This document shows positions 4,836 through 22,000 of a DNA stretch of 27,709 nucleotides, one piece after another. Position 1 is the first letter of the stretch; each line of letters opens with the position of its first letter. Location of the stretch: the NCBI GenBank assembly GCA_964551625.1, contig CAZKDW010000001.1, positions 13,115 to 40,823 on the forward strand, read 5' to 3'. The translations under genes were made by a program, and so were the position numbers. Below the pieces are notes generated by a model. It was not told where the DNA came from, ran no database searches, and saw only the letters and a list, made by a program, of their open reading frames with translations. This DNA comes from an uncultured Thermotogae bacterium. Lineage in GTDB: Bacteria; Bipolaricaulota; Bipolaricaulia; UBA7950; UBA9294.

Positions 4836-4868
4836 TCTCACGTCTCCTTTCTAGCAAGCGAATCCGGA

Positions 4869-5500: not shown

Positions 5501-6202
5501 TCAAAGCCCCAGATAGGCTCGCTTCACGTGCTCGTTGCCAAGCAGCTCGTCAGACGGTCCCTCAAGCACAACCTCACCTGTTTCAATCACATACCCGCGA
5601 TCGACGGCATGCAGGCTTTGCCGGACATTTTGCTCAGCCATCATGACTGACATCCGCTCACTGATGCTTCGCAATGTGTGGAATAGCTCCGTCACCAACG
5701 AAGGCTGAAGCCCAAGCGACGGCTCATCAAGAATAAGGAGCTTGGGCATGGACATTAGCGCACGGGCAATCGCCAGCATTCGCTGCTCCCCACCGCTCAA
5801 CGTCCCTGCGAGTTGCCGTGCACGGTCGTTCAGAATCGGGAACATCTCATACGCGGCATCAAGGGATTTCGCCATGTGCTTGTGTGCTGCCGGGATGTAG
5901 GCCGCGCCGGATTCTAGATTTGCACGAACCGACATGAACGGGAACAACTCGCGTTCTTGTGGCACCACAGCAATTCCAGCACGAATGATCTGATGCGTTG
6001 ACAGGCGAACCAGCGACGAGCCTTCGAAGCTAATTTCCCCACTCTTGGGTCGGACCAGCCCAACAATGGCATTAACCAATGTGGTCTTCCCCGCACCGTT
6101 TGGGCCGAATACGCCGACAGATTCATTTCCGATTTCCAACGACAGGTCTCGAAGGACGTGCGCCTTGCCGTAGTACTGATTAACCTTGGAAATGCTGAGC
6201 AT
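5501..6202 (-). CDS. livF: HAAT/Liv-type ABC transporter ATP-binding subunit
   Basis: GPNGAGKTT, LSGGEQRMLAIARALM, LILDEPSLGL, C-terminal AYLG. The symbol is a family label only; the substrate is not established. Confidence 0.93.
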   Translation of the reverse strand: MLSISKVNQYYGKAHVLRDLSLEIGNESVGVFGPNGAGKTTLVNAIVGLVRPKSGEISFEGSSLVRLSTHQIIRAGIAVVPQERELFPFMSVRANLESGAAYIPAAHKHMAKSLDAAYEMFPILNDRARQLAGTLSGGEQRMLAIARALMSMPKLLILDEPSLGLQPSLVTELFHTLRSISERMSVMMAEQNVRQSLHAVDRGYVIETGEVVLEGPSDELLGNEHVKRAYLGL

Positions 6203-6918
6203 TACTCCTCCTCTCCAAGATAGGCCGTGATCACTTGGGGGTCTGCAGACACGTCCGCATAGGGCCCCTCAGCGATAATCATCCCTCCATTTAAAACGAT
6301 GACTCTGTCTGTCAGCTCGCGGATGACGCTCATCACGTGCTCGACAACGCAAATAGCCACCCCTTGACCGCGAATCGCCTTAACAGATGAGACCATGTCC
6401 TTCGTCTCATCGCTATTCAAACCGGCCATCACTTCATCAAGGAAAAGTACGCTGGGACGAGAAGCTAAGGCACGCCCAATCTCAAGTTTTTTGATCTCAA
6501 GAACTGTGAGATTTGAAACATCTCGATCCATCTCACTCAGCTCAAGCAGTTCACCGATCTCATTAGCAATCCTACGCGCCTCACGCAAGCCAACTCGCTG
6601 TCCGAAGAGAGCGCCAACCATGATATTCTCCTGTGCGGTGAGATCCTCTAGAGGCTGAACTAGCTGAAACGTTCGCCCAATCCCCAAGCGACATCGAACA
6701 TAGGCAGGAGCCATAGTGATCTCCTTGCCGCTGAGGTAAATTCGACCCTCATTGGGCATGTATAGACCGGAAATGACATGGATGAGCGTCGTCTTGCCAG
6801 CGCCGTTCGGGCCGATAATCCCGAGGATTTCGTCCTCCCCCAAACTGAAGGTCACATCACTCAACGCCACCAGACCGCCGAAACGCCGCGTAAGAGATTC
6901 AGTCGTCAAGACAGCCAT
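6202..6918 (-). CDS. livG: HAAT/Liv-type ABC transporter ATP-binding subunit
   Basis: FGGLVAL, GPNGAGKTT, GIGRTFQ, LFLDEVMAGL, VVEHVM, VITAYLG. TAATG overlap with livF. GTG 6921 is an alternative start. Confidence 0.93.
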   Translation of the reverse strand: MAVLTTESLTRRFGGLVALSDVTFSLGEDEILGIIGPNGAGKTTLIHVISGLYMPNEGRIYLSGKEITMAPAYVRCRLGIGRTFQLVQPLEDLTAQENIMVGALFGQRVGLREARRIANEIGELLELSEMDRDVSNLTVLEIKKLEIGRALASRPSVLFLDEVMAGLNSDETKDMVSSVKAIRGQGVAICVVEHVMSVIRELTDRVIVLNGGMIIAEGPYADVSADPQVITAYLGEEE

Positions 6919-7018
6919 CACTCACACCCCCCATCATTACTCGCACTCAAGCGACACAGCAGCCATTGCGCTCCGATTTGTTCATTTTCTACCGCATATC
7001 TATTGGCTACGCCGACCA

Positions 7019-7954
7019 TCAGCTACCACGTCCCGATTGAAATTGGCGAACTCTCGCCCTCAATGCGCCCACGAATCCTTGCGGAAGGAACAGTGTCACC
7101 AAAACAATGATCCCGCCATAGACCAATAGATGTCCGTAGGGAATCTGCAGCTTTAAGTATTCGCCAAGAACGCCGAGAACGAGTGCTCCAACAACGGGTC
7201 CCCACGTGCTGTGAACGCCGCCAAGCAAAGCCATCGCCAGAGGAAGAAGCAGGAAGTTAGCATTGAAACTTCCCTCAGGAGATACAAATCCATAAACATG
7301 GGCGTAGGCTCCACCGGCTATTCCCTGAAGAACAGAGGTAACCGCGAACACGAACACGAGATACCAGAAGACATGAATGCCACTCGATTTGGCCACACGT
7401 TCGTCGTTACGGATCGAGGTCAAGGCAAGACGAATTCTAGTATGCTGGAACACTTCCGACATCCCAATCGCAAGAATAGCAACACCCAATGCGAGCCAAT
7501 AGACCTGCGTGGTATTCCCGTTGAAAACGCACGTCGGGAGCATCATCCCTTCTGGCCCGCCAGTTAAGCTAGGAATGTTGCGCACAACTACAGTAAAAAT
7601 GCTAGCAAGCGCAAGCGTGGTAATTGCGAAGTACATGCCTCGCAATCTTAGAACCGCCAGACCAACCAATAGAGCGACAACTCCCGCAAAGACACCTCCA
7701 AGCAGGATGCTAGTGATAGGATTGACACCCACATTGAGGAAGAGTAGCACGGCCGCATAGCTTCCCAATCCAAAAAAACCGGCTGTGCCGAAGCTGAGTT
7801 GTCCTGATCGAAGCAACATGTCCCAGCTCAGCGCTAGCGTCATGTAGATCAGCGTCGTGACAGCCACTTGCTGTGTATAAGCCCCCGAAACAAGCGGAAA
7901 TACCGCGGCCAACGCCGCCCCTAAAGCATAGCCAATATATCTTGAGTTCCTCAT
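7019..7954 (-). CDS. livM: HAAT/Liv-type ABC transporter permease
   Basis: GQLSFGTAGFFGLGSY, LRLRGMYFAITTL, LTGGPEG, multiple TM helices. Confidence 0.92.
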   Translation of the reverse strand: MRNSRYIGYALGAALAAVFPLVSGAYTQQVAVTTLIYMTLALSWDMLLRSGQLSFGTAGFFGLGSYAAVLLFLNVGVNPITSILLGGVFAGVVALLVGLAVLRLRGMYFAITTLALASIFTVVVRNIPSLTGGPEGMMLPTCVFNGNTTQVYWLALGVAILAIGMSEVFQHTRIRLALTSIRNDERVAKSSGIHVFWYLVFVFAVTSVLQGIAGGAYAHVYGFVSPEGSFNANFLLLPLAMALLGGVHSTWGPVVGALVLGVLGEYLKLQIPYGHLLVYGGIIVLVTLFLPQGFVGALRARVRQFQSGRGS

Positions 7955-8886
7955 ACCACGCGCCTCCGGTACGATCTCGTCATGATCACTGCGACCAGTA
8001 CAGCAAAGAACACGACGTCAGCCCAGCCGCCGTACCCCCGGAAGGACAGCACAAAGGCTTCTGCAATGCCTAGCGCGAAGCCTCCCCAGACAACGCCTGG
8101 CAGGTTGCCAATGCCTGCCATCGCGATCAAACAAAATGACTTCATTGTGAAGGGAGAGCCGACCGCCGGAAACACCGAATGTCGTGTGAGGAACAGGGCG
8201 CCAATCGCCCCTACCAACGCGATCGATATACTAAAAATTAACATGTACGTTCGATTCACGTCAATACCAACTAGCTTCGCTCCGCGCGGATTCTGGCCAA
8301 CTGCAAGCGCTGCTTTGCCTAGCCGCGTACGGCGCAAGAATAGAAGCAATCCAGCAAGCAGGACGAGCGCAGCGCCGGTATAGACAAACGCGTATGTGCC
8401 GAATCTCAATGAGCCGAGGCTTATGGACGAATACACGTAGCTCAGATGCGGTTTGAGAGGACGCGAGGTCCACATCAGGTTGGCAAACTGCGCCGCCATC
8501 ATGGCCAGTCCGAATGTCAGCAGTAGTTGATTCAGTTCCGGTGCCTTTAGAGCACGGCGGATTGTCAACAAGTAGGTAGCCGCTCCGATCAGCGCAAACA
8601 CTGCCAGCGCTGGAATAATCGCCACGAGTGGATCCAATCCCGTGTAAACGCCTAGCCAATAGGCAAAATAAGCTCCCAACATCATGAACTCACCATGAGC
8701 CAGGTTAATAATCCCCACAATCCCAAGAATCAGCGCCATTGGCAATGCAATAAGCGAGTACACGCCTCCACGCTGAATGCCCTCAATCAGCGCATATGGC
8801 TTCCAAACTGCCAACAGCACCAACACAATCATCGACACGAGGGCTGTCACATACCGTCTTTGTTGCAGCTTGCGAAGCAATGTCAT
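7951..8886 (-). CDS. livH: HAAT/Liv-type ABC transporter permease
   Basis: GIINLAHGEFMMLGAY, LLLTFGL, AVGQNPRGAKLVGID, AMAGIGNLPG. Start placed at ATG 8886 (GGGGTG RBS) because the longer track start runs through a hairpin. ATGA overlap with livM. Confidence 0.9.
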   Translation of the reverse strand: MTLLRKLQQRRYVTALVSMIVLVLLAVWKPYALIEGIQRGGVYSLIALPMALILGIVGIINLAHGEFMMLGAYFAYWLGVYTGLDPLVAIIPALAVFALIGAATYLLTIRRALKAPELNQLLLTFGLAMMAAQFANLMWTSRPLKPHLSYVYSSISLGSLRFGTYAFVYTGAALVLLAGLLLFLRRTRLGKAALAVGQNPRGAKLVGIDVNRTYMLIFSISIALVGAIGALFLTRHSVFPAVGSPFTMKSFCLIAMAGIGNLPGVVWGGFALGIAEAFVLSFRGYGGWADVVFFAVLVAVIMTRSYRRRVV

Positions 8887-8908
8887 GTCACCCCAATCCC
8901 TTGTTGCC

Positions 8909-8937
8909 GGACCGGCTCGGCAACGCCGAGCCGGTCC
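8909..8937 (-). other. Perfect 13-bp GC-rich stem-loop between the binding-protein and permease genes
   Basis: GGACCGGCTCGGC-AAC-GCCGAGCCGGTCC; no long U-tract follows on the sense strand. Confidence 0.8.
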
Positions 8938-8967
8938 ATGCATATCTAGCCCATATCGGGCGTTCTT

Positions 8968-10185
8968 CTATCGGCCAGTGTACGGGAAGTGCGGCAATGC
9001 TGTGGCGAACTCGAACGGCCACAGAATTTGCTGCGAACCATCCTGCCACTGGAGGATCTTCTGCCCCTGGAATCCCTGGTGCTCGATCAGGTTCGAAGGA
9101 GTGAACGTCAGAGTTTCGCCAAGCGGCGAATCATACGACGTCTCTTCCAAGGCGGCAATTAGTGCCTCTTTCTCCAACGTGCCAGCGCGGGTGATAGCTT
9201 CTGCGACAACATACACGTTCGTATAGCCAAGCGGTGCAAAATACGTCGCCGGCTCTTCTTCGTGCATCTCGATGTATGCATTCCAGAAATGGTCGCTGAC
9301 CGGGCTGATATTCCTCATCGACGGCGCCCACATGCCATAGGCGACAACGCCTTCCGCTAGCGGGGATTCGCCGAAGTCAGCTGGCCAGCCAGGAGGGGAC
9401 CCAACAAACAATGAAGGAGCAAAGCCAATCTCGCGCGCCTGCTCCATAATCGGAAGTGCGTCTGCGCCATATCCAACCCAGATGAAGATATCTGGATCGA
9501 TTTCCTGTGCGTGACGCAGGACGGAGCGATAGTCGCCACCACCAAACACAGCACTCTTGAACGACTCACCGACGTTGTCCCAGGCGTCATGGGCAACTAG
9601 ACTACCAGCGTATGATCCGCTCCCAAACGCGCCCTCTTCATAGGCCCAGAAAGCAGTTTTAATGTCGATCAGCGGATACTGTGCTGAAATGTCAGCCCAG
9701 CCCTGCACGTAACTGCCACCCTGAAGATAATCCCAGGGATGAAGGTGGAAGTACCAATCTTCACCTTCCATCGCTTCCTCAACGAGCGACGAGGCCGCGC
9801 CGGCCCAGACCGTAACCTTTTCATACTTCTTCAGCGTCGGGATTTCTCCAAGATGGACGCCGCTGCTCATTCCACCAATAAAGATGTCGACTTCATCGAC
9901 TGTTGCCAGTCTGTCGATCGCCGCCGCACCCTTGGCTGCATCGAATTCACTATCGATGACAATCAGTTCCAGCTGGCGTCCGAGGATACCGCCAGCCGCG
10001 TTAATCTCGGCGACTGCCAGTTCCATCGCTTTCGTACTCTGGGCACCTGTGATATCGCCGAGCGGATTGACCGCACCAAGCTTGATGGGGCCTTCCTGCG
10101 CAACCGCAATGAAGACCAAGCCGACAATCATGACGGCTGCAAGAATTCCTACCTTAAGAAATGATACTTTGCCTTTGGTACTCAC
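8968..10185 (-). CDS. HAAT/Liv-family (type I periplasmic) substrate-binding protein
   Basis: PIKLGAVNPLG, MELAVAEINAAGGILGRQLELIVID, AYTNVYVVAEAITRAG-like C-terminal helix. Signal peptide ending AVA-QE. GTG 10185 follows GGGAGG; ATG 10209 is an alternative start. Confidence 0.9.
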   Translation of the reverse strand: MSTKGKVSFLKVGILAAVMIVGLVFIAVAQEGPIKLGAVNPLGDITGAQSTKAMELAVAEINAAGGILGRQLELIVIDSEFDAAKGAAAIDRLATVDEVDIFIGGMSSGVHLGEIPTLKKYEKVTVWAGAASSLVEEAMEGEDWYFHLHPWDYLQGGSYVQGWADISAQYPLIDIKTAFWAYEEGAFGSGSYAGSLVAHDAWDNVGESFKSAVFGGGDYRSVLRHAQEIDPDIFIWVGYGADALPIMEQAREIGFAPSLFVGSPPGWPADFGESPLAEGVVAYGMWAPSMRNISPVSDHFWNAYIEMHEEEPATYFAPLGYTNVYVVAEAITRAGTLEKEALIAALEETSYDSPLGETLTFTPSNLIEHQGFQGQKILQWQDGSQQILWPFEFATALPHFPYTGR

Positions 10186-10273
10186 TCTAACCTCCCTGAT
10201 ATTGTTCATTCAGTATTCGCCGAATTCGCCCGTTCGTTGCTAGGTATCACCTCCTGATAGGATTTGCAAAGTT

Positions 10274-11104
10274 TCACGACGGCATCTCGTCTGGCATCTT
10301 CGAATGCTTCAACAAGAATCCAACAACTACCGTCAGAAATTCTCCTGCTCGTTCAAGAAATGCTCCATGTCCTGCATTCGGCAACGTGATGAATTCGCAC
10401 TGCGGAATTGCATCGTACATTTCCTCCATCAACCGCACCGGAGTGATCATGTCATCGTCAGCACCGATCAGCAGCGTCGGCATGCTAAGACCATTCAGAT
10501 CCTCGTCAGACACTCGAAACCCCATGGTGCTCCGGCACAATCGGCCAAACCCATCGAACCATTCCTTGGTCAACAGCGACTTGAACATCGCTTGTCGCTC
10601 GTGCAGCATGTCAAGGTTCTTAGCGTAGAACTCCCTCGAATAGATGAACGGAACAGCCAACTGAAAGAAACGTTCGCCATCATTTAGATTAGCGGCCACT
10701 TCCCAGGCACGTCCGATCTCGGCCAGATGATTCGAGATGTAGTGATTTGCGTTGGCGAGAGTCAGCGTTCGCACGCGATCCGGATGGGCGACAGCTACTC
10801 GCTGTGCCACTTGGCCGCCGTACGATAGTCCAACCAAATGCGCGTTCGGCAGTTCGAGCGTGTCAAGCAATCCGATAACGTCCTGCACGTGAACGTCAAG
10901 GCGATATTCTCCGTTCGCCTTCTGCGAACGTCCTTGGTCTCGAAGATCAATAAGAATGAGTCTGACATGACGCGACAGCACTGGAATATGCTGCGCCCAG
11001 CTGGCCGTGTTCATCATGATTCCGCTCAATAGGACGACTGGGTCGCCTTTTCCGTGCTCCTCATAATAAATCTCAAGATCGTCGTTCGATCTAAATGTCG
11101 CCAT
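10274..11104 (-). CDS. Cytoplasmic alpha/beta hydrolase (PcaD/enol-lactonase-like esterase)
   Basis: DLRDQGRS, nucleophile elbow GLSYGG, GADDDMITP (acid), AGHG (His). No signal peptide. Confidence 0.88.
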   Translation of the reverse strand: MATFRSNDDLEIYYEEHGKGDPVVLLSGIMMNTASWAQHIPVLSRHVRLILIDLRDQGRSQKANGEYRLDVHVQDVIGLLDTLELPNAHLVGLSYGGQVAQRVAVAHPDRVRTLTLANANHYISNHLAEIGRAWEVAANLNDGERFFQLAVPFIYSREFYAKNLDMLHERQAMFKSLLTKEWFDGFGRLCRSTMGFRVSDEDLNGLSMPTLLIGADDDMITPVRLMEEMYDAIPQCEFITLPNAGHGAFLERAGEFLTVVVGFLLKHSKMPDEMPS

Positions 11105-11909
11105 ATTCGCCCACCTTCTGTTGCGTATCTTGCTGTCTTGTGGTCTTCAGTCGTCCGTCCGCCAGCTGCTCGCGCACCAAGTCCGCAAACGTACTGTCAG
11201 CAAAGCATTCGGAAAATCGGTCGGACTCCACACTCAGACCGGCTGCAAAGGGCAGGTGCTGCGATGCGTAGATCGCCTGTTTGGCGGCAGTGAACGCATG
11301 TGCGGAGATGGCCTTCGTTCGCTCGGCTAACGCTGAGGCTCGATTCTCGACGTCTGCGGAGGCAACCATCTCATGGATCAGCCCAGCGTTCAGTGCTTCG
11401 CGCGCTTTGTACAATCTTCCAGTGAGGATCATCTCGGTGGCTCTGCCGATGCCGATCACGCGTGGCAAACGCTGTGTTCCACCACCCCCGGGGATAATGC
11501 CAAGCTTCACCTCGGGTAGGCCGATCCGCGACGCATCACTCGCCACTCGCAGATCGCAGGCCAAGGCGAACTCCAGTCCACCACCGAAACACAATCCATC
11601 AATTGCTGCAATCAGCAACAATGGACTTGCCTCCATGAGGTTGAATAACCCTTGAATACGAACCGAGAAGTCACGCGCCTCAGCAGGAGACAGTTGAACC
11701 ATCTCAACTCCGTCCGCTCCGCCGATGAAATGCGTCTCGCCAGCACCCTGATAGACGATCGCGCGAGCACCAGACGCTTCAGCAACCTCAAGATGCCCCT
11801 GCAACTGCACGAGAGTCTCGGAGTCCAACGAATTTCGGTCTCCTGGACGATTGATGGTCACCCAATGGACATCATCCGCTTCGCGAATCACTAGGTTCGA
11901 GAATCCCAT
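11091..11909 (-). CDS. Enoyl-CoA hydratase (crotonase family)
   Basis: FIGGAD oxyanion loop, CFGGGLE and LPEVKLGIIPGGGGTQRL with both catalytic Glu present. ATG 11909, or GTG 11948 overlapping the upstream stop. Confidence 0.92.
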   Translation of the reverse strand: MGFSNLVIREADDVHWVTINRPGDRNSLDSETLVQLQGHLEVAEASGARAIVYQGAGETHFIGGADGVEMVQLSPAEARDFSVRIQGLFNLMEASPLLLIAAIDGLCFGGGLEFALACDLRVASDASRIGLPEVKLGIIPGGGGTQRLPRVIGIGRATEMILTGRLYKAREALNAGLIHEMVASADVENRASALAERTKAISAHAFTAAKQAIYASQHLPFAAGLSVESDRFSECFADSTFADLVREQLADGRLKTTRQQDTQQKVGEYGDI

Positions 11910-11947
11910 GCTTACTCGATGTCCTTCGCCCCGGTGTCTCTCGTCCA

Positions 11948-12718
11948 CTAGATCACCAAGCCTCCATTCGGACTGAGCACCTGTCCGGTGAAGAAGTCAG
12001 CTCCTGGACTGGCCAGAAACCAGATGAGTTCGGCGATCTCTTGCGGCAATGCAAATCGCTTCAGCGGAGTCCGTCGCACAATTTGCTCCTTGAACCGGTC
12101 ATCCATTGCATCAAGCAGTGGCGTTTGTACATATCCCGGGGCAACCGCGTTGACTCGCAAGTTGTACCGTGCCACTTCCCGGGCAAGCGTCTTGGTCAGC
12201 TGGACCACGCCCGCCTTGCTTGCACTGTAGTGAAGTGCTCCAGGAGTCGGCATAAGCGCCGAGACTGAGCTAAGGTTGACGATCCGGCCGCATTTATATC
12301 CCTTCATCCAACGCACCGCTTCACGACAGCAGTAGAACGTACCGCTCAGAGTGACGCTGATCATTCGATCCCATTGGTCGTCAGTCATGTCTTCTATGAA
12401 CGTTGCCGCATCGAGAATACCCACACTGTTCACTAGGAGATCAAGCCGCTCGCAGCGATCCTGGAGGATGCCGAACAGCGCAGCGACCTGCATGCTGTCC
12501 GAGACGTCAGTTCGATACGCCTCCGCCTTGCCTCCGTCGCGCACAATCTCCGCAGCAACTTGTTTCGTGCACTCAAGATCTACATCGGCAATGAAGACGC
12601 GCACGCCGTCGCTAGCCAGTCTCATGGCCACCGCACGCCCGATTCCTGATGCGCCACCAGTCACTAGGGCGGTTTCGCAGATGTAGGTCTTCGTCACTTC
12701 CTTCATTTCCGACATCAC
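11948..12718 (-). CDS. Classical SDR oxidoreductase (FabG-like, predicted NAD(H)-preferring)
   Basis: TGGASGIG, IADVD (acidic residue at the end of beta2), NSVG, LSS, YSASK, VNAVAPG, DGG-like NGG tail. Confidence 0.9.
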   Translation of the reverse strand: MMSEMKEVTKTYICETALVTGGASGIGRAVAMRLASDGVRVFIADVDLECTKQVAAEIVRDGGKAEAYRTDVSDSMQVAALFGILQDRCERLDLLVNSVGILDAATFIEDMTDDQWDRMISVTLSGTFYCCREAVRWMKGYKCGRIVNLSSVSALMPTPGALHYSASKAGVVQLTKTLAREVARYNLRVNAVAPGYVQTPLLDAMDDRFKEQIVRRTPLKRFALPQEIAELIWFLASPGADFFTGQVLSPNGGLVI

Positions 12719-13464
12719 GCCTCCAGGAACCTGTTGTACGCTTTCTTCGACTGCGCTGTTGGGAAGATGACGAACGGTTCCTTCCCCATCTGCTCAATCG
12801 TTCCTTCGGCCACGTCCTCGGCAGAGTCCATGTGCCCGCGTAGCCGATCAGCGACTTGGCTCATCGCCTCAGCGCCAACTCCGACTCCGAAGAACCCGGT
12901 ATCCGTCAAATGTGGGCACACGACCTGGACGGAAATGTCTGAGTCCTCAAGTTCTCGTCGAAGCCCTCGACTCATTCCTACCACCGCATGTTTGGCTGCC
13001 AGATAGGCCGAAACGTTCGGTGCGTGAGCAATCAATCCACCAGTGGAAGCAATGTTGACGATCATCCCATGCCCAGCATCCCTCATCGCGGGAAGCACCT
13101 GCTGAGTCATCCGGAAGACTGCGATGACGTTCACATCGAATAATGAGCGCAGATCGGACTCCTCTATTTCGTTGAACGGCGCATAAAGTCCGAATCCCGC
13201 GTTGTTGATCAGAACATCGATCCGCCCCCACTCATTAAGGACATGCTCGACGAGTTGTCGACGTTCGTCGTCGTTACTCACGTCACACGGGATCGTCAAG
13301 GTCTCACCCGCACATGAACCAGCAACCTTGGCCAACTGCTCGGCGCGACGCGCGGCGAGAACCACGCGAGCCCCTCGTTTCGAACAGGCGACAGCCAGTG
13401 CGGCACCAATCCCGGAACTGGCTCCGGTGATGATCACGGTTTTCTCCGTCAATCGATTCGTCAT
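12715..13464 (-). CDS. Classical SDR oxidoreductase (predicted NADP(H)-preferring)
   Basis: TGASSGIG, AARR, NNAG, IAS, YLAAK. ATG 13464, or GTG 13470. Confidence 0.88.
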   Translation of the reverse strand: MTNRLTEKTVIITGASSGIGAALAVACSKRGARVVLAARRAEQLAKVAGSCAGETLTIPCDVSNDDERRQLVEHVLNEWGRIDVLINNAGFGLYAPFNEIEESDLRSLFDVNVIAVFRMTQQVLPAMRDAGHGMIVNIASTGGLIAHAPNVSAYLAAKHAVVGMSRGLRRELEDSDISVQVVCPHLTDTGFFGVGVGAEAMSQVADRLRGHMDSAEDVAEGTIEQMGKEPFVIFPTAQSKKAYNRFLEA

Positions 13465-13491
13465 CCGCACCTTCCGCCTCGGTTCATGCTC

Positions 13492-14772
13492 CTAGAATCC
13501 ACCGTATGCCTCACGCTCCCATTCCATCTCGGCGTTGGAGTAGAGCTCGTACGTCCCTGCTCCGAATACGCTGTTCAACGCCTGAGCTGTCGGCTCATCC
13601 GATGCCTCAGCGAACGCAGCGATAAGCTGCATCGTTTCAGCCGGATGATGAATCGGAAAGCCATGGTCGTAGCCATGGTCTGCATGAAGCATGACCGCGG
13701 TCACCGTCGCGCCCGCGCGTCGCAAGTCGTACTTGGTGTTCTTCGTGATGGAGTCATCGATGACCAGATCGCCCCGCCATGAGGTTCGATCCGTCTGTGC
13801 CTTGACCAGAAGAACCCGCTTCCCTTCGAAGGCTGCCGTTCGATCTGCCCCTGGGATCGAGACTGAGGTCCCGTCACGATTCGTGTGTTGAAGGATGCTG
13901 GAAGTCGCATTGAAGCGATGGCTCGCATACAACGATTCAGGCATGTAGACGGTGGACAACACATCCTCGATTGCGTTCAAGTACCCCGAATTGTCCAAGT
14001 ATGTTGGTTCTTTGGCGATCCCTAGCAGCGGATCGAATTTGAGCACATCGTTAAAGACAACCATGTTCCAAATGACGGACGCATTCTTGGCGGTGCGATT
14101 CTCTCCACCCCATGATCTCTGATGAAAGGCGACTGCAGATTGCGAGTCAGCCCAGTCTCCAGTGCTGTACGACAACCCAGTCTCTGGATCGTCGCCGACC
14201 GTGTTACCGGCGAATAGCACACGAACACCGCGCGTTCCAATACCGGCAAGAGAAACGATGCCTGAATACTTTGAGGGATCGAGGTCAACCATCAATTGAG
14301 CCACACCGAATCCCATCGAGTGGCCGACAAGAGTGATGTTCCCGGCCTGTAGAAGCGGATCAGTTTGAACGATATCGGCGAAGTCTCGGGCAAAATCATC
14401 AAGGGATTCAATCGGATGCACATAGGTGGAGCCACCACTGCCACGGTAGTCAAAGGCGTAGAACGTGTATGCTTCTCGAATCTCCTTGGTCGCTTCTACG
14501 AGCGCAAGAAGAGGTTCGAAGCTACGCCCGGAGCAGTTGTTGCCAGCAAGAAGCACCACAGGCGAGGGCCCGCAACCGGCCATCCTCACATGAATCGTCT
14601 CGCCACTACTCACCTGAAACAGCTGGGCCTCCTTCGATTCCTGTACATCCTGTCGCCCGCATGACGCAAGAAGAACCGCGCACAGCAGTCCGGCCGCTAG
14701 GACTCTACCATACTGCCTTTGCGAGGGCACTCTCGGCATGTTGTTCATCCATTCAACGATCCTTCGCTTCAC
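13492..14772 (-). CDS. Predicted lipoprotein alpha/beta hydrolase (esterase/depolymerase-like)
   Basis: Basic n-region, hydrophobic stretch and lipobox LLAS-C (Cys codon 14659-14661). DYRGSGGS, GHSMG (14311-14325), GDLVI, DHG. The start could also be ATG 14748 or 14739. Confidence 0.82.
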   Translation of the reverse strand: MKRRIVEWMNNMPRVPSQRQYGRVLAAGLLCAVLLASCGRQDVQESKEAQLFQVSSGETIHVRMAGCGPSPVVLLAGNNCSGRSFEPLLALVEATKEIREAYTFYAFDYRGSGGSTYVHPIESLDDFARDFADIVQTDPLLQAGNITLVGHSMGFGVAQLMVDLDPSKYSGIVSLAGIGTRGVRVLFAGNTVGDDPETGLSYSTGDWADSQSAVAFHQRSWGGENRTAKNASVIWNMVVFNDVLKFDPLLGIAKEPTYLDNSGYLNAIEDVLSTVYMPESLYASHRFNATSSILQHTNRDGTSVSIPGADRTAAFEGKRVLLVKAQTDRTSWRGDLVIDDSITKNTKYDLRRAGATVTAVMLHADHGYDHGFPIHHPAETMQLIAAFAEASDEPTAQALNSVFGAGTYELYSNAEMEWEREAYGGF

Positions 14773-15510
14773 CTACGTGATCAGACCGCCGTCGACGCTC
14801 AGCACAGCACCATGAACGAATGCCGCTTCGTCGGACGCGAAGAAGAGGTAGATGTTGGCGACATCGCGCGCACTACCTAGGCGTCCAAGTGGCGTTTTGC
14901 TACGCATCAAATCGAGCACCTTCTCTGGCACGCCTTCAGTCATTTCTGTTTGAATGAATCCCGGGGCAACTGCATTCACGTTGATCCCCTTCTTTCCCAA
15001 TTCACGTGCCCAGACCTTGGTCATACCAATGACGCCCGCTTTGGTAGCAGCGTAATTCGTCTGTCCAAAATTGCCATATAGCCCGACAACTGACGACACA
15101 TTGATGATTCGACCGCTGCCCTGCTCAATCATGTGCGGGACCACTGCTTGGGTTGTGTTGAATGTCCCCTTCAAGTTGACATCTACGACCAGATCGAAGT
15201 CAGCTTCTGTCAGCTTGACAAGTTGGCCATCGCGAACGATGCCTGCGTTGTTCACCAAGATGTCAATTCGTCCGAATTCCTTCACTGCCGAGCTAGCCAT
15301 CGCTTGACACGTTTCTCGATCAGTGACATCCGTTCGAATGAACAGCGCCTTGCCGCCACCGGCCACAATCTCCGCAGCGACTGTCTCAGCATGGCTATCC
15401 ACGTCAGCCACGACAATCTTGGCACCCTCGCTGGCGAACAACAGTGCCGCTTCTCGACCAATTCCCCGGCCTGCTCCAGTAATAACGGCAACTTTCCCCT
15501 CTAAACGCAT
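14773..15510 (-). CDS. fabG: 3-oxoacyl-(ACP/CoA) reductase, FabG/PhaB-like SDR
   Basis: TGAGRGIG, VADVD, NNAGIVRD, SSVVGLYGNFGQTNYAATKAGVIGMTK, VNAVAPGFIQTEM, SVDGG. ATG 15510 follows GGAGGAG. It may act on CoA esters rather than ACP. Confidence 0.88.
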   Translation of the reverse strand: MRLEGKVAVITGAGRGIGREAALLFASEGAKIVVADVDSHAETVAAEIVAGGGKALFIRTDVTDRETCQAMASSAVKEFGRIDILVNNAGIVRDGQLVKLTEADFDLVVDVNLKGTFNTTQAVVPHMIEQGSGRIINVSSVVGLYGNFGQTNYAATKAGVIGMTKVWARELGKKGINVNAVAPGFIQTEMTEGVPEKVLDLMRSKTPLGRLGSARDVANIYLFFASDEAAFVHGAVLSVDGGLIT

Positions 15511-15526
15511 ACGCAACTCCTCCCTT

Positions 15527-16546
15527 CTAAACCCATCGGAACAGCGCCGTTGATAGAACGAAGCCCGCTCCCGATGTACAGAACGCCACCAGATCTCCTG
15601 AAACGATTCGGCCTTGCTCAAGCGCGTCATATAGCGCCATGAACACCGACGCAGAACCGGCGTACCCGAACCGATCGGCTACCCAGTGTGTTTTCTCCAT
15701 CGACAAACCCAGCTTTTCCAGCGTTGCTGTTACAGTTCCTAGTTCAACCTGATTCATCAGAACCAGCTTTAGTTCGTCGGGTGTATGGCCAACCGCCGCC
15801 ATCGTCTTGCGCAGCAGGTCAGGCCAGCGCGCAATATTGAAGTCAGCCGGGACGCGATGTGCGTTTTCGTGAAATCGAAGATACTGTTGCCCCGTCTCGA
15901 TCATGTCTGCAGTTGGCGGCCGGCCGGTCCCAAGATAGATACCGTACGTGTCCCAATAGCTCCCTTCAGTCAGCATCTTGGAGGAGAGGTAGCCATCCTC
16001 CTCCGACGGAGAAAGAACAACGGCTCCGGCACCGTCACTGAACAGCATTGAGAGAACCTTGGACGCGGATTCGCTGTAGGGTCTCCAGTCAAGCCATTTC
16101 GTCATTCCGTATGCCCCAATAACCATGACGTGATTAATCGCCGGATCGAGTGCGATATAGTGAGATCCGATTGCCAATGCTATTGTCTCATCAGTACATG
16201 CAGCGTTAATGTCAAACACTCCTGCATTCGTTGCGCCCAACTTGTGCTGGATTACCGCTGATGTCGGTGGACTGATGAAGTCCGGGGTGTCCGTGGCAAG
16301 GATGATCAGATCAAGGTCATCAGGCGTCAGCCCCGCACGTTCTAATGCTTCGCGGGCCGCGTGAACCGCCATGTCAGATGTTGCTTCATCTGCGGCAGCA
16401 CGATAGCGAACGCCGATTCCCTTGCCGTCAAGATATGACTCGACGTCGTAGTTCATCATTTCGCCCAGTTCTGCGTTCGTAATCCTCTCTTGAGGAAGAT
16501 ACATTCCCACGCCTGAGATTCTTGCGGCTCTGATCTGCTTCTCCAT
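15527..16546 (-). CDS. KAS III (FabH)-fold protein with non-canonical active site
   Basis: ISGVGMYLP, ATDTPDFISP, DINAAC (Cys117), LFSDGAGAVVL, FCTSGAG. The HQAN site reads NQVE and the GNTS site reads GYAG. Confidence 0.85.
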   Translation of the reverse strand: MEKQIRAARISGVGMYLPQERITNAELGEMMNYDVESYLDGKGIGVRYRAAADEATSDMAVHAAREALERAGLTPDDLDLIILATDTPDFISPPTSAVIQHKLGATNAGVFDINAACTDETIALAIGSHYIALDPAINHVMVIGAYGMTKWLDWRPYSESASKVLSMLFSDGAGAVVLSPSEEDGYLSSKMLTEGSYWDTYGIYLGTGRPPTADMIETGQQYLRFHENAHRVPADFNIARWPDLLRKTMAAVGHTPDELKLVLMNQVELGTVTATLEKLGLSMEKTHWVADRFGYAGSASVFMALYDALEQGRIVSGDLVAFCTSGAGFVLSTALFRWV

Positions 16547-16548
16547 AC

Positions 16549-16998
16549 CTATTCAGTCCTCTCTTCGGCTAGAATCACGGTCGCTCGTCCATCTCGAAGA
16601 ACCTCAGGGCGAGGTTCAAGCCTCATACCTACCTGAATTGCATCAGCGGGAATACCACGGATCCATCCCATAACACGAAGTCCGTTGTCCATTTCCACAA
16701 TGCCCACTGGAGAAGGCTGATACGCGTACGATGAACATGGCGCGGTTCTCGACAAGTCCGGTGTGAAATGCTCTGGGGTGACGAACACGGTGGTGTATGA
16801 CAGCAACCGTCCCGTACCAGTTACGCACACCCATCCGAACTCAGTACCGAAACAATCGGGGCAGTCGCTCCGAGGCGGGTACTGGATCTTCCCACACGTC
16901 TCACATTTGGAGCCGAGCAGCTCTCCCCGTTCGAGACCATCCACAAATCCGCTGACCTTTGTATCTTGAACCAATAAACTGAAGTCTTTGAATTCCAT
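16549..16998 (-). CDS. DUF35 Zn-ribbon/OB-fold protein (thiolase partner)
   Basis: CETCG...YPPRSDCPDC, GTGRLLSYTTV, VGIVEMDNG. ATG 16998 follows GGGAGG; GTG 17004 is an alternative start. Confidence 0.92.
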   Translation of the reverse strand: MEFKDFSLLVQDTKVSGFVDGLERGELLGSKCETCGKIQYPPRSDCPDCFGTEFGWVCVTGTGRLLSYTTVFVTPEHFTPDLSRTAPCSSYAYQPSPVGIVEMDNGLRVMGWIRGIPADAIQVGMRLEPRPEVLRDGRATVILAEERTE

Positions 16999-17009
16999 TC
17001 CCACCTCCC

Positions 17010-18170
17010 TTATGAGCGACTGAAGACATGCACAGCTGAATGCTGGCCATTGCCACCGACGTTATGCGATAGACCGATTTCAGCGCCCTGAACCTGACGT
17101 CCGGGATCTGCTTCTCCACGCAATTGCTTGGCAATCTCCACTGCCATCGAAACACCTGTGGTGCCAATCGGATGACCTTTTGACTTGAGCCCGCCATCGA
17201 CATTGACTGGAGTCTCTCCACCGATGTAGGTCTGCCGATCCTCGACCCAAGGGCCACCTTCACCTCTCGGGCAGAAGCCCAGATCCTCGTAAGCCACAAT
17301 TTCAGCGATCGTGAAGCAATCATGGACGACGGCCACATCAACCTGTTTGGCGTCAATTCCGGCCATTTCATAGGCCTGATCAGCCGCTTCGACTGTCGCA
17401 CCAAGCGTGGTCAGATCATCGCGATGAGCCAGCGCTAGCGAGCCAGTCCCTAGGCCGAGGCCACTCATCCAGATTGGATCCTTGCTCAGACGTTTGGCCA
17501 TCTTCTCAGACGCGAGCAAAATGGCAGCCGCTCCGTCGGAGATCAGGCAGCAGTCGTATAGCTTGAGGGGGTCGGCGACCATGAAAGAGTTCATTGCCTT
17601 TTCAAGGGTAATCTCTTTCTGCATGTGGGCGTACGGATTCATCGCGCCATAGTGATGGTTCTTCACCGCGACAGCCGCAAGTTGTTCTTGCGTCGTTCCA
17701 TACTTCGCCATATGCGCGCGGGCAATCATTGCGTAGTAGCCGGGGAATGTCATGCCGAAGGGATATTCCCACAGGAAATCGCCGGCGCGGCCAAGCACTT
17801 CGGTCGCCATGGACGTCGGGACCTCTGTCATCTTTTCAGCGCCAACAACCAAAACGAGGTCGGCTAGGCCAGATGCGATATTCATCCATCCGGCGCGAAC
17901 CGCCATGCTACCAGACGCACATGCAGCCTCTACGCGAAAGCTCGGTTTGGGGTGAAATCCAAGATAGTCGACAACCTGAGCCGTCGGTTGGAGAGCAAAA
18001 CTAAGCTCATCCGAAGCTACACTGACAATCATCGACTCCACATCCGCCAATGGAATGTCAGCATCCTCAAGGCAAGCCTTCACCGCCTCGAATGCCAGTT
18101 CACGCAGCGACGCATCGGATCGAATCCCGAAGCGGCCTTGCCCAACGCCAATGATTCCGACTTTCCCCAT
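17010..18170 (-). CDS. Thiolase, SCP2/archaeal type
   Basis: VEAACASG (Cys84), VGAEKM, AVKNH, ISDGAAA, HDCFTIAE, NVDGGLKSKGHPIG, HNVGG. AAGGAG RBS. Confidence 0.93.
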   Translation of the reverse strand: MGKVGIIGVGQGRFGIRSDASLRELAFEAVKACLEDADIPLADVESMIVSVASDELSFALQPTAQVVDYLGFHPKPSFRVEAACASGSMAVRAGWMNIASGLADLVLVVGAEKMTEVPTSMATEVLGRAGDFLWEYPFGMTFPGYYAMIARAHMAKYGTTQEQLAAVAVKNHHYGAMNPYAHMQKEITLEKAMNSFMVADPLKLYDCCLISDGAAAILLASEKMAKRLSKDPIWMSGLGLGTGSLALAHRDDLTTLGATVEAADQAYEMAGIDAKQVDVAVVHDCFTIAEIVAYEDLGFCPRGEGGPWVEDRQTYIGGETPVNVDGGLKSKGHPIGTTGVSMAVEIAKQLRGEADPGRQVQGAEIGLSHNVGGNGQHSAVHVFSRS

Positions 18171-18229
18171 TTCAACTCCTTGAATCTCCGTGCTTCGTCG
18201 ACACAGCCAATTGGCGGCGTCTCATTTTA

Positions 18230-18250
18230 TGACACCTGACTCAGGTCTCA
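18230..18250. promoter_or_regulatory. Candidate TetR operator 1
   Basis: TGACACCTGACTCAGGTCTCA, a near-perfect 21-bp palindrome that touches the -10 box and covers the predicted transcription start of the thiolase operon. Confidence 0.8.
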
Positions 18251-18279
18251 CCATAGCATGAATCGTAGCGACTCGTCAA
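18250..18279 (-). promoter_or_regulatory. Sigma70-type promoter of the 16-gene operon
   Basis: Minus strand: TTGACG (18279-18274) N18 TATGGT (18255-18250), with an extended -10 TG. Confidence 0.7.
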
Positions 18280-18395
18280 TACCTACTTCACAGTAATTGC
18301 CTCGATTAGGCTTGAATAGCAAGCTATAGCGCCTGTAGCTCGGCGCTTGGGTTTACGCCAAATCTATTCTTGTGCTCGCAGCTCCGTTTTTTCTC

Positions 18396-18416
18396 TGAGA
18401 GCTGATTCATCTCTCA
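18396..18416. promoter_or_regulatory. Candidate TetR operator 2
   Basis: TGAGAGCTGATTCATCTCTCA, an exact fit to TGAGA-N2-TGA-N-TCA-N2-TCTCA, 46 bp beyond the tetR stop. Confidence 0.72.
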
Positions 18417-18462: not shown

Positions 18463-19698
18463 TTAGACCAACTGTAGAGACATGCCGCGCTCAAGGATGT
18501 CGAGCAAATCAGCAAGCATGTCATCGGAAATCGTGCCTTCCGCCCCGCTGAAGAAAGCCCACAATGCAACGGAGTGTCCAATCCCAAGAAGTGCGTAGGC
18601 GAGAGGTTCAAGTGCCAGAGCACGAATTTCTCCACGCTCCATACCACGATGCATTCCTCTCATATAGCCCTTGGCCAACCGTTCGTAATACCAACGTCCT
18701 GTGTCATGATCAACCAATTCCGCCTCGCGAAGAATCCTGTAGGCTCCCTGATGCATAGCAATGAATCGAAAGAAAGTTCGGAATCCTTCCCGTTCAATAT
18801 CGCGGCGATCCTCAAGACCTGCTAGCGCCTGCTGCTCATCAGATCGAAATCTGCGGTTGATCTCGCGAAGCACCTCAACAAACACAGCTACTTTGCTCGG
18901 GAAATAGAGATAGAAAGTGCCCTGTGCCACTCCAGAGAGATAAGTTATTCCGCTGATGGGCGTTTGATAGAAACCTGCCTGTCCAAACAGCTGCTCCGCC
19001 GCCATGAGTAGGGACTGCTTCGTTGCCTCGCCGCCCTGAAGCTCTTCAACCTCTTCAAGGGATGGAATAGGAACTGCTGACTGAGTCATCTTGGTTGCTC
19101 GCTCAGATCCCGAATCAAAACCTCTCAAGATGATCGAATCGAGAGTCTGTAGAACGCCCTCGTTCAGTGAACCGGGTTCCCAAAGGATGTAGCGCATAAC
19201 AGTGAACTCAACGATCCCGAGCAAGACGTATGCTGCCATTCTCGCATCAATCGGTCTCAACTCACCTGACTGGATGCCAAGTCGGACAATCCGCTGCAAT
19301 GCATCGGCTATTTTTGCTCGGAAATGCCGATGGATCTTCATCTGCATCGATTCTGATCCCCGGCCAACTCGGTAAAGCGTAGTCTCCCTCTCCACAAAGG
19401 CCAGCACGCGGCGATAGGCACAGATCAGAGCCTCTGGCCCTGTCTTCCCTTCGTTGCCTACTGCCTCTATCTGCTCGCACAGGGCCGCCTCAAGCCGCTC
19501 CACCAATAGGACAAACACTTCTTCCTTGCTTTCGAAGTATCGATAGAAAGTCCCGTTGGCTAGGCCTGCACGCTGACAAATCTCCGAGACTGATGCGACG
19601 TAATAGCCTCGCTCGCTAAATATGCTTTCAGCAGCTCGAAGCAGTGCCTCACGCGTTTTCTGAGCTTTGGGCAGATAGGGCAATTGGCGTTTTGTCAC
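18463..19698 (-). CDS. Tandem (two-repeat) TetR/AcrR-family regulator
   Basis: Two complete TetR units: TREALLRAAESIFSERGY...GLANGTFYRYFESKEEVF and TKQSLLMAAEQLFGQAGF...GVAQGTFYLYFPSKVAVF, each with its own C-terminal domain (GELR.../GEIR...AY.LLGI). GTG 19698 preferred; ATG 19764/19761 are alternatives. Confidence 0.9.
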   Translation of the reverse strand: MTKRQLPYLPKAQKTREALLRAAESIFSERGYYVASVSEICQRAGLANGTFYRYFESKEEVFVLLVERLEAALCEQIEAVGNEGKTGPEALICAYRRVLAFVERETTLYRVGRGSESMQMKIHRHFRAKIADALQRIVRLGIQSGELRPIDARMAAYVLLGIVEFTVMRYILWEPGSLNEGVLQTLDSIILRGFDSGSERATKMTQSAVPIPSLEEVEELQGGEATKQSLLMAAEQLFGQAGFYQTPISGITYLSGVAQGTFYLYFPSKVAVFVEVLREINRRFRSDEQQALAGLEDRRDIEREGFRTFFRFIAMHQGAYRILREAELVDHDTGRWYYERLAKGYMRGMHRGMERGEIRALALEPLAYALLGIGHSVALWAFFSGAEGTISDDMLADLLDILERGMSLQLV

Positions 19699-19778
19699 GT
19701 CTGTTTCCTTCCTCACTATCTGGACCGGGGTCTCTGAGTAGCTAATCTGTGGATGACCCATCATCCCAACACCAACGA

Positions 19779-21916: not shown

Positions 21917-21958
21917 GTCGGATGGACATGCAGCAGTTGTCCATTTGATCGAACATTG

Positions 21959-21989
21959 CGGGGGCGGCTCGTCCGTCCCCGTTCTTATT
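21959..21989 (+). terminator. Terminator/attenuator-like hairpin between acs and the MFS gene
   Basis: CGGGGGCGG-CTCGT-CCGTCCCCG (9 bp, one G.U pair) followed by TTCTTATT. Confidence 0.55.
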
Positions 21990-22000
21990 GGAGGGTTGGT

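Follow-up and report, generated by a model that had tools for sequence, protein, structure and literature searches.

The stretch of DNA analysed here, called the window throughout, comprises 27,709 nucleotides of contig CAZKDW010000001.1 (positions 13,115 to 40,823) from an uncultured Thermotogae bacterium assigned to the Bipolaricaulota in GTDB (GenBank assembly GCA_964551625.1), and the gene in question occupies positions 15527 to 16546 on its minus strand. The encoded protein has the fold of ketoacyl-acyl carrier protein (ACP) synthase III (KAS III, FabH) and is referred to, together with the family of its relatives, by the working name KAS3L (KAS III-like). The gene and the codons on which the argument turns are located as follows, with FabH residues numbered as in the E. 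coli enzyme:

15527..16546, minus strand: KAS3L, a KAS III (FabH)-fold protein of 339 aa (Pfam, phmmer, hhalign, AlphaFold2, Foldseek)
16289..16291, minus strand: codon GAC for Asp86, in the TDTPD motif (hhalign; invariant)
16196..16198, minus strand: codon TGT for Cys117, the predicted acyl-carrying nucleophile, equivalent to E. coli FabH Cys112 (invariant in 81 orthologues)
15752..15754, minus strand: codon AAT for Asn265, where FabH has His244 (Thr in the majority of the family, His in none)
15662..15664, minus strand: codon TAC for Tyr295, at the FabH Asn274 position (invariant)
15572..15574, minus strand: codon TCG for Ser325, where FabH has Phe304 (Ser or Thr family-wide)

The reading frame opens with an ATG at 16546 and closes with a TAG at 15527-15529, and both KAS III domains, ACP_syn_III (PF08545) and ACP_syn_III_C (PF08541), were matched in the translation by Pfam. 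The AlphaFold2 model of KAS3L (pLDDT 90, pTM 0.91) showed lower confidence only in an insertion at approximately residues 195-235, and its top structural matches in Foldseek were FabH enzymes (TM 0.83-0.90 at approximately 31% identity), with BioZ and PqsD next in rank. FabH is also nearest by sequence, since the enzymes of E. coli (1HN9), N. meningitidis (4RYB) and A. aeolicus (2EBD) were matched by the family profile at approximately 30% identity and with E-values down to 1e-64. The two families have in common the fold, the length, the nucleophilic Cys, the Gly-rich oxyanion loop and the positions that contact coenzyme A (CoA). The loop, which provides the second amide of the oxyanion hole, reads S-G-A-G in KAS3L and F-G-G-G in FabH, while the CoA contacts are kept as Trp or Tyr at position 38 (FabH Trp32, adenine stacking) and Lys163 (FabH Arg151).

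The remainder of the active site departs from FabH. A reading of the same DNA from its letters alone, here the sequence-only reading, had noted that Cys117 is retained while Asn265 and Tyr295 replace His244 and Asn274; its coordinates and codons all proved correct, and by alignment the 30-residue spacing of the two replacements does equal that of H244 and N274 in E. coli. Both phmmer searches against solved FabH structures and a profile alignment with the E. coli enzyme placed Cys117 on Cys112, N265-Q-V-E on H244-Q-A-N, and G-Y295-A-G-S on G-N274-T-S-A. In FabH, His244 and Asn274 are needed for decarboxylation of the malonyl group and stabilisation of the enolate. Across the KAS3L family, His244 is exchanged for Asn or Thr, Asn274 for Tyr, Phe304 and Phe87' each for Ser or Thr, and Thr81 for Asp, and KAS3L further differs from FabH in the insertion around residues 195-235, an unconserved Arg249 position, the absence of a fab operon and the presence of archaeal members. 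Nor is the ACP-docking patch kept, as FabH Arg249, Lys256 and Lys257 correspond to Gly270, Glu277 and Lys278; an Arg is found at the Arg249 position in 34 of 81 orthologues, namely those next to PhaC in Anaerolineae.

The scores of KAS3L fall below the NCBI cut-offs for fabH (NF006829, 210.4 vs 249 bits; TIGR00747, 182.5 vs 292.1 bits), and yet its relatives carry the names 'ketoacyl-ACP synthase III' or '3-oxoacyl-ACP synthase III' in public records. The warning in the sequence-only reading that an automatic fabH label would mislead was therefore justified, as these names are given despite the replaced His and Asn. Its rejection of a role in the initiation of fatty-acid synthesis was likewise borne out by the family-wide replacement of these residues, the scores below the cut-offs, the change of Arg249 to Gly270, the archaeal members and an operon without ACP, fabD or fabF, none of which was found anywhere in the window.

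The most informative change in the alignments is one to which the sequence-only reading did not refer, namely Asp86, and the operon context was likewise absent from it. With hhalign, Asp86 aligned with Glu79 of the 3-hydroxy-3-methylglutaryl-CoA (HMG-CoA) synthase of E. faecalis (PDB 1X9E) and with Thr81 of E. coli FabH. In HMG-CoA synthase, Glu79 serves as general base and takes a proton from the acetyl group on the Cys, so that an Asp at this site would adjoin C-alpha and C-beta of an acyl group bound to Cys117. Asn265 aligned with the Asn of the thiolase NEAF motif, though weakly (hhalign probability 38%), and the register of the oxyanion hole suggests that Ser325 falls at the position of the thiolase acid/base Cys378. 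As aligned, the pocket is rebuilt from His/Asn/Phe/Phe to a polar set of Asp/Tyr/Tyr/Ser/Ser/Thr, and such a polar pocket would suit an acyl group with a hydroxyl or keto function and reactions that involve no decarboxylation.

The distribution of these features was assessed in three ways: by searching 5.8 billion proteins, by scanning one genome of each species, and by a profile search of 1.84 billion representatives. The first recovered relatives from 100% down to 47% identity in Candidatus Bipolaricaulota, Chloroflexota and archaea. By the second, a relative is present in 269 species genomes that span more than ten phyla (among them Bathyarchaeia, Bipolaricaulota, Chloroflexota, Caldisericota and Coprothermobacterota), the archaeal carriers being Bathyarchaeia and Njordarchaeota. 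When 81 non-identical orthologues from these bacterial and archaeal genomes were aligned (43-100% identity), Asp86, Cys117, Gln266 and Tyr295 were fully invariant, and the positions that are invariant or nearly so further included Pro88, Asp89, Asn114, Tyr146, Met148, Thr286, His287, Gly294, Gly297 and Ser298. Position 265 was Thr in 53 and Asn in 28 of the 81 and nothing else, and positions 92 (FabH Phe87') and 325 (FabH Phe304) were each Ser or Thr. The family signature was accordingly written as TDTP[DE] ... NxxC ... Y146 ... [TN]Q ... GYxG[SN] ... [ST]G, and the window protein carries all of it (D86, S92, N114, C117, Y146, N265-Q266, G294-Y295, G297-S298, S325). The sequence-only reading had proposed an alignment of homologues around the two replaced motifs, and it is indeed [TN]Q and GYxG[SN] that mark the conserved family.

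In the profile search, the top hits split cleanly and with perfect co-variation into sequences with D86/S92/N114/Y146/T265/Y295/S325 and sequences with the canonical T/F/x/E/H/N/F, and no intermediates between the signature and canonical FabH were found among approximately the top 50. Between KAS3L and six orthologues at 75-82% identity, nonsynonymous divergence (pN) was 0.11-0.16 against a synonymous divergence (pS) of 0.69-0.82, and with pN so far under pS this indicates strong purifying selection on the gene. These values, together with the 269 genomes, run counter to the possibility, raised in the sequence-only reading as what would undo it, that the substitutions are private to one strain and accompanied by other signs of decay. 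Judged from the aligned sequences, the signature is not decay and lies far beyond chance, and it sets KAS3L apart as a discrete sister family of FabH.

Two further residues were considered as parts of the active site. His287 was tried as a relocated catalytic His, but this was weakened by its not being kept across the wider family, where it is changed to Pro, Thr or Val in approximately one-third of members despite being invariant in the 81 close orthologues; because of these replacements, it would not be a general catalytic residue. Asp119 belongs to the CTDE motif that the sequence-only reading had pointed out after the Cys, and the motif is present in the window protein as described, though not as a family feature, since Asp119 does not occur beyond the closer half of the family.

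Some unusual relatives were also encountered. A FabH-like protein in the representative library (P0138), the score of which lies at the boundary between the KAS3L family and canonical FabH, keeps the His and Asn and has Ser in place of the nucleophilic Cys (motif VAVSAGF). In a metagenome-assembled genome (MAG) of Njordarchaeota, the KAS3L gene is broken into three open reading frames (L070:10025-11005), either as a pseudogene or by an assembly error. In an Actinomycetota MAG (L046:4345-5751), a MaoC-like N-terminal fragment runs in frame into KAS3L, which is probably a frameshifted upstream MaoC gene and not a true fusion.

In the window, sixteen minus-strand genes are tightly packed, with gaps of -14 to 97 nt between them, and KAS3L is the third in the series. 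The other members of this operon and the features upstream of it are listed below in the direction of transcription, preceded by the regulator:

18463..19764, minus strand: regulator of 433 aa, located 5' of the operon, with a pair of TetR DNA-binding domains (Pfam)
18224..18416, minus strand: promoter-like hexamers and palindromes, candidate TetR operators (consensus matches only)
17010..18170, minus strand: SCP-x/archaeal-type thiolase, nucleophilic Cys and HDCF motif intact (NF004720, 518 bits vs cut-off 420)
16549..17004, minus strand: DUF35 protein with zinc ribbon and OB fold, the usual partner of SCP-x-type thiolases (Pfam)
14773..15510, minus strand: FabG-type 3-oxoacyl reductase (just above the FabG cut-offs)
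13492..14772, minus strand: lipoprotein alpha/beta-hydrolase of 426 aa with lipobox LLASC, motif GHSMG and a large insertion (best solved relative 8YNV)
12715..13470, minus strand: short-chain dehydrogenase/reductase (SDR)
11948..12718, minus strand: SDR
11091..11948, minus strand: enoyl-CoA hydratase
10274..11104, minus strand: cytoplasmic Ser alpha/beta-hydrolase (GLSYG)
8968..10209, minus strand: binding protein of a Liv-type ATP-binding cassette (ABC) importer
7951..8943 and 7019..7954, minus strand: permeases of the Liv-type importer
6202..6921 and 5501..6202, minus strand: ATPases of the Liv-type importer
4869..5477, minus strand: flavin mononucleotide (FMN) reductase
3237..4841, minus strand: adenosine monophosphate (AMP)-forming acyl-CoA ligase, similar to FadD and feruloyl-CoA synthetase, the last gene of the operon

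The thiolase, DUF35 and KAS3L genes follow each other with gaps of 5 and 2 nt. The FabG gene starts at the ATG at 15510, 16 nt past the KAS3L stop codon and preceded by a GGGAGGAG ribosome-binding site; the reading frame called by the program (14773-15630) is 120 nt too long at its 5' end, and its apparent overlap with KAS3L is thus spurious.

The conservation of this neighbourhood was examined in 80 related loci, annotated by phmmer with the window proteins and checked for the key genes with Pfam and NCBIfam, of which 36 had at least 5 kb on each side of KAS3L. In these well-flanked loci, the most constant partner was a Ser alpha/beta-hydrolase (34 of the 36), followed by the binding protein and ABC components (29 each), the AMP-forming ligase (24), FabG (23), a TetR-type regulator (18) and a thiolase (17), while MaoC and a CoA-transferase of the butyryl-CoA:acetate type were each found in 6; FabG or MaoC was present in 28 of the 36. 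Among all 80 loci, the hydrolase lies immediately beside KAS3L in 41, FabG directly 3' of it in 25, and DUF35 is a neighbour in 13. The arrangement of the window, with thiolase and DUF35 directly upstream, was seen in close Bipolaricaulota relatives (L005-L014) and three Chloroflexota loci (L063, L064, L082), and the extra SDRs of the window operon are missing from most loci. In Caldisericota and Coprothermobacterota, the order is hydrolase, KAS3L, FabG, importer, TetR, CoA-transferase and classical thiolase. In several Anaerolineae and Ardenticatenia, a coiled-coil protein, a PhaC-like synthase, an NF005308 paralogue, FabG, ligase and hydrolase precede KAS3L, which is followed by a second ligase and the importer.

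Several features of these loci point towards polyhydroxyalkanoates (PHA) such as polyhydroxybutyrate (PHB). Hydrolases resembling PHB depolymerases occur in approximately 29 loci, and lie beside KAS3L in Caldisericota and many Chloroflexota. The best solved match of the 355-aa hydrolase beside KAS3L in Caldisericum was 8YNV (77 bits; next 47 bits), as it was for the lipoprotein hydrolase of the window (44 bits; next 25 bits), 8YNV being the PHB depolymerase of B. thuringiensis (PMC12278694). For both proteins, the best NCBIfam match was the intracellular short-chain-length PHA depolymerase, as a partial match below the cut-off. In five loci, a PhaC-like PHA synthase with a GYCMG box (TIGR01836, 315 bits; cut-off 365) belongs to the same string of genes as KAS3L. 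FabG in some loci gives way to MaoC in others, and the one substrate common to both, (R)-3-hydroxyacyl-CoA, is also that of PHA synthase. Finally, a thiolase with an OB-fold subunit, together with a FabG paralogue acting as PhaB, makes up the PHA enzyme set of haloarchaea (PMC7137286). Individually weak, these lines appear to converge on (R)-3-hydroxyalkanoate metabolism.

The PHA synthases of the five loci (L067:3767-5592, L072, L074, L083 and L063) are of class III/IV-like or class I-like type, and a coiled-coil protein of 157-220 aa without family match, which might be a subunit of the PhaR/PhaE type, precedes the synthase. Members of NF005308 are encoded in Chloroflexota loci between a PhaC-like synthase and FabG (L067:5668-6690, L082:5542-6591 and eight similar reading frames). 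These '3-oxoacyl-ACP synthase' paralogues (NF005308, PRK06840) resemble KAS3L in their KAS III fold, in a non-canonical site with Glu at the position of Thr81/Asp86, and in being likewise encoded with FabG, AMP-forming ligase and hydrolase. They keep the Cys and differ from KAS3L in having His and G-H-x-x-x-x-D, a spacing that matches the His and Asp of CerJ and ChlB3, instead of Thr-Gln and G-Y, and KAS3L reaches only 152 bits with this model against a cut-off of 315. The lipoprotein hydrolase of the window is itself a candidate for a polyester depolymerase that a Bipolaricaulota bacterium exports.

With the fold, the signature, the loss of the catalytic and ACP-docking residues of FabH and the gene neighbourhood as the observations, we infer the substrate, the reaction and the roles of the residues as follows. 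The operon would import a carboxylate-bearing substrate, activate it to a CoA ester and process (R)-3-hydroxyacyl-CoA or 3-oxoacyl-CoA. KAS3L would be a CoA-dependent, non-decarboxylating acyl-S-Cys enzyme acting on these compounds, most likely by moving the acyl group between ester and thioester, and we give this reading a probability of roughly 0.4, with most of the weight on its general part and about half on ester thiolysis. As substrate we favour (R)-3-hydroxyalkanoate oligomers freed from PHB or PHA by the neighbouring depolymerase-like hydrolases. Exported and cytoplasmic esterases would release and trim such oligomers, the ABC system would take them up, and the ligase or CoA-transferase would activate their free carboxyl end. 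The acyl chain may then pass from the acyl-CoA onto Cys117, using the retained oxyanion hole of Cys and backbone and the CoA contacts. The former malonyl pocket, now presumably a neutral polar set of Thr/Asn265, Gln266, Tyr295, Ser/Thr325 and Tyr146, would receive the next ester carbonyl, polarised by Tyr295 and Thr/Asn265 and attacked by CoA, while Asp86, placed beside C-beta of the unit on Cys117, would donate a proton to the departing 3-hydroxyl. The 3-hydroxyacyl-CoA products could finally be oxidised by FabG or dehydrated by MaoC, and then cleaved by thiolase.

The chemistry of PHA synthase offers a precedent for ester formation, the reverse of the proposed thiolysis. In the KAS III fold, a precedent for the reverse reaction, from thioester to ester by way of an acyl-Cys, is given by CerJ and ChlB3 (PMC9573744). 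The likeness of KAS3L to PhaC, an alpha/beta-hydrolase-fold enzyme with a Cys-His-Asp triad, would be one of functional analogy only, covering the 3-hydroxyacyl-S-Cys, a carboxylate acting on the 3-hydroxyl and the (R)-3-hydroxyacyl-CoA substrate; the folds are unrelated, and any action of KAS3L on polyester bonds would be hypothetical. A more far-reaching version, which we regard as unlikely, is that KAS3L represents a hitherto unrecognised route of polyester depolymerisation, in which CoA takes the place of water in cleaving imported, CoA-activated (R)-3-hydroxyalkanoate oligomers, so that the energy of the ester bond is kept and several 3-hydroxyacyl-CoA are gained per ATP, with Cys117, Asp86 and Tyr295 convergent with PHA synthase, and that this solution is common to energy-limited anaerobic bacteria and archaea.

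Several points weigh against the ester-thioester reading. To our knowledge, no enzyme of the KAS III fold runs ester thiolysis, and neither a characterised KAS3L member nor a paper on the family was found in the literature. The nearness of Asp86, Tyr146, Tyr295 and Ser325 to Cys117 is deduced from alignment, and His287, as mentioned above, varies in the wider family. The connection to PHA consists of weak or partial hydrolase similarities, all below the family cut-offs, and of a PhaC adjacency in 5 of 80 loci, and the commonest type of neighbouring hydrolase (abh276) has the appearance of a generic esterase or an enol-lactonase; among solved structures, the esterase MGS-M2 (4Q3L) is closest to the 276-aa hydrolase. 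Moreover, the ligase is closest to fatty-acyl-CoA and feruloyl-CoA synthetases, no informative solved relative was found for the binding protein, and a FabG directly downstream would be equally expected if KAS3L makes or cleaves 3-ketoacyl-CoA.

This last point leads to the main rival, less probable in our view but to be taken seriously, in which KAS3L is a thiolase in the FabH fold that performs a non-decarboxylative Claisen condensation or the thiolytic cleavage of 3-ketoacyl-CoA. Cys117 would again carry the acyl group, Thr/Asn265 and Tyr295 would form the enolate oxyanion hole and a proton relay, and the 3-keto compound would be delivered or consumed by FabG, in keeping with the fabH-fabG logic of the loci in which FabG follows KAS3L directly. 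Thiolases (Cys-Asn-His with an acid/base Cys) belong to the same superfamily, use CoA substrates and do not decarboxylate, and the weak match of Asn265 to the Asn of NEAF and the probable placement of Ser/Thr325 at the acid/base Cys site fit this scheme, as does Asp86, an added carboxylate being, as in HMG-CoA synthase, the usual solution for condensation without decarboxylation. The sequence similarity to thiolases is, however, marginal: KAS3L has Tyr for the second-position His and Ser/Thr325 for the acid/base Cys, most of the family has Thr at position 265, and Ser, Thr and Tyr are poor acid/bases for carbon. Genuine thiolases are encoded in almost half of the well-flanked loci, the window included, which would render a thiolase function of KAS3L redundant. 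It would also leave the Ser hydrolases, the most constant partner, unaccounted for, and loci with MaoC and without FabG have no dehydrogenase with which to reach a 3-keto substrate.

In a further alternative, which we consider improbable, KAS3L is a pure transacylase that exchanges a 3-hydroxyacyl or 3-ketoacyl group between CoA and either ACP or some other carrier or acceptor, as a PhaG-like bridge from fatty-acid synthesis to PHA or CoA pools, or is a thioesterase. This is what the sequence-only reading had proposed: its negative half, that the protein is not FabH, is well supported, and its positive half, a Cys-dependent acyltransferase, ester synthase or thioesterase, would fit the gene context. 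The acyl-CoA:ACP transacylase half-reaction of FabH needs the Cys alone, and the orthologues with Arg at the Arg249 position, next to PhaC in Anaerolineae, would be compatible with carrier docking. Against this, KAS3L itself has Gly at that position, Lys256 and Lys257 are not conserved, the window holds no carrier-protein gene, the family extends to archaea, which lack ACP, and the invariant set of Asp86, Tyr295, Tyr146 and Ser325 would be needless for plain transacylation. CerJ, ChlB3 and ChlB6 resemble KAS3L in combining the KAS III fold with acyl-Cys transfer without condensation (PMC9573744), yet they come from actinomycetes, where they are ACP or natural-product enzymes, and were not among its close sequence matches. 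CerJ and ChlB3 rely on the triad Cys-His-Asp, whose His lies close to the site of Asn274 and whose Asp follows after five to six residues (PMC9573744), whereas KAS3L reads G-Y295-A-G-S-A-S there, with neither His nor Asp. A CerJ-type triad was accordingly discarded, and the parallel to CerJ drawn in the sequence-only reading holds only loosely.

A comparably small chance is given to KAS3L acting as an HMG-CoA-synthase-like partner of the thiolase and DUF35 protein, in which the three would form a channelling trio and an aldol or Claisen reaction with Asp86 as base would pull an unfavourable condensation. The archaeal thiolase/HMG-CoA synthase/DUF35 complex (6ESQ) and its repurposed relatives PhlACB and SmaATase likewise place a KAS III-like gene beside an SCP-x-type thiolase and DUF35, and the close packing of the trio in the window and its recurrence in the Bipolaricaulota and Chloroflexota loci named above are in line with this. 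Asp86 and Cys117 fall on Glu79 and Cys111 of the E. faecalis enzyme, with Asp instead of Glu, and the HDCF motif of the window thiolase conforms to the HDxF motif that characterises true archaeal ACATs (PMC12960953). The trio is, however, restricted to some lineages, and most members of the family lack a thiolase/DUF35 neighbour. Of the E-C-H-N tetrad of HMG-CoA synthase (PMC12960953), both His233 and Asn275 are replaced, by Asn/Thr265 and Tyr295, and KAS3L is much closer to FabH than to HMG-CoA synthase, scoring 72.9 bits against a cut-off of 244 with NF003274 and aligning with HMG-CoA synthase only in its N-terminal half (residues 9-145). A PhlA-like subunit of a PhlACB-type acyltransferase was also considered and rejected: PhlA lacks both the nucleophilic Cys (Gly115) and the Glu (PMC6392133), whereas Cys117 and Asp86 are present and invariant in the KAS3L family, and neither PhlA nor HMG-CoA synthase came near the top in the profile search of solved structures. 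A phloroglucinol/triacetate pathway was considered as well, but no SDR scored as phloroglucinol reductase, and most loci lack the extra SDRs.

We judge it about as improbable that the enzyme is of the proposed type but serves a bulky carboxylate, aromatic or otherwise, as in the beta-oxidative shortening of hydroxycinnamate side chains. Liv-type binding proteins often serve aromatic acids. An aromatic or fatty-acid substrate would be possible because the ligase is closest to feruloyl-CoA and fatty-acyl-CoA synthetases, also among its solved relatives; the enoyl-CoA hydratase, the SDRs and the SCP-x thiolase with DUF35 could take part in such a route, and abh276 resembles PcaD and meta-cleavage-product hydrolases. 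What this leaves unaccounted for are the PHB-depolymerase-like hydrolases, the adjacency to PhaC, and the modules of CoA-transferase and classical thiolase. An OleABCD or beta-lactone cluster, which likewise combines a KAS III-like enzyme with an SDR, an AMP-forming ligase and an alpha/beta-hydrolase, was discarded, since the ligase is similar to FadD and feruloyl-CoA synthetase and not to OleC, OleA keeps the His and Asn, and the KAS3L cluster has a binding-protein-dependent importer. That KAS3L is an ordinary FabH starting fatty-acid synthesis, or a decaying or inactive scaffold copy, is very improbable: the FabH fold, the public labels and the FabG neighbour would agree with it, but the catalytic His and Asn are gone in every member and the scores lie below the fabH cut-offs, decay is contradicted by the strong purifying selection and the invariant new polar residues, and a scaffold by the retained Cys and oxyanion hole.

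Compared by sequence with FabH, HMG-CoA synthase, the CerJ-type acyltransferases, PhlA and thiolase, KAS3L lacks what defines each of them. It belongs to the thiolase superfamily, with the KAS III fold, and represents a distinct and widespread family that appears to combine a new active-site constellation with a conserved catabolic operon. The Cys/Asp/Tyr/Thr set would be a new active-site solution in the thiolase superfamily, and the operon a conserved one for the import and use of ester-linked hydroxy acids, probably breakdown products of PHB or PHA, in anoxic sediments and digesters. Recognition of the family would correct metabolic reconstructions that read fatty-acid synthesis from the label, even in archaea. 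If ester thiolysis is true, KAS3L would be a useful biocatalyst that converts polyester oligomers directly to CoA esters.

Upstream of the operon, the regulator combines tandem TetR domains in one chain, an unusual fusion, and relatives of it were found beside the KAS3L gene cluster in several phyla, in 26 of the 80 loci. The gap between the TetR and thiolase genes contains two near-identical 21-bp palindromes (TGAnAnCTGA-T-TCAnnTCTCA, at 18230-18250 and 18396-18416), and two minus-strand matches to sigma-70-like promoters extend into the first of these; the palindromes look like candidate operators of the adjacent TetR-type regulator. The sequence of the window recurs almost word for word in metagenome runs from salt lakes, marine samples and sediments, with 95% of the sampled words found in the best run; no RNA runs with the locus were found, all matching runs being DNA. 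Taken with the protein matches, these runs suggest a bacterium of the Bipolaricaulota (Acetothermia) that lives in saline sediments. Divergently from the TetR gene, an acetyl-CoA synthetase (NF001208, 921 bits vs cut-off 657) and a major facilitator superfamily (MFS) transporter are encoded on the plus strand (19958-23272), and this pair recurs in three of the related loci (L009, L011 and L013).

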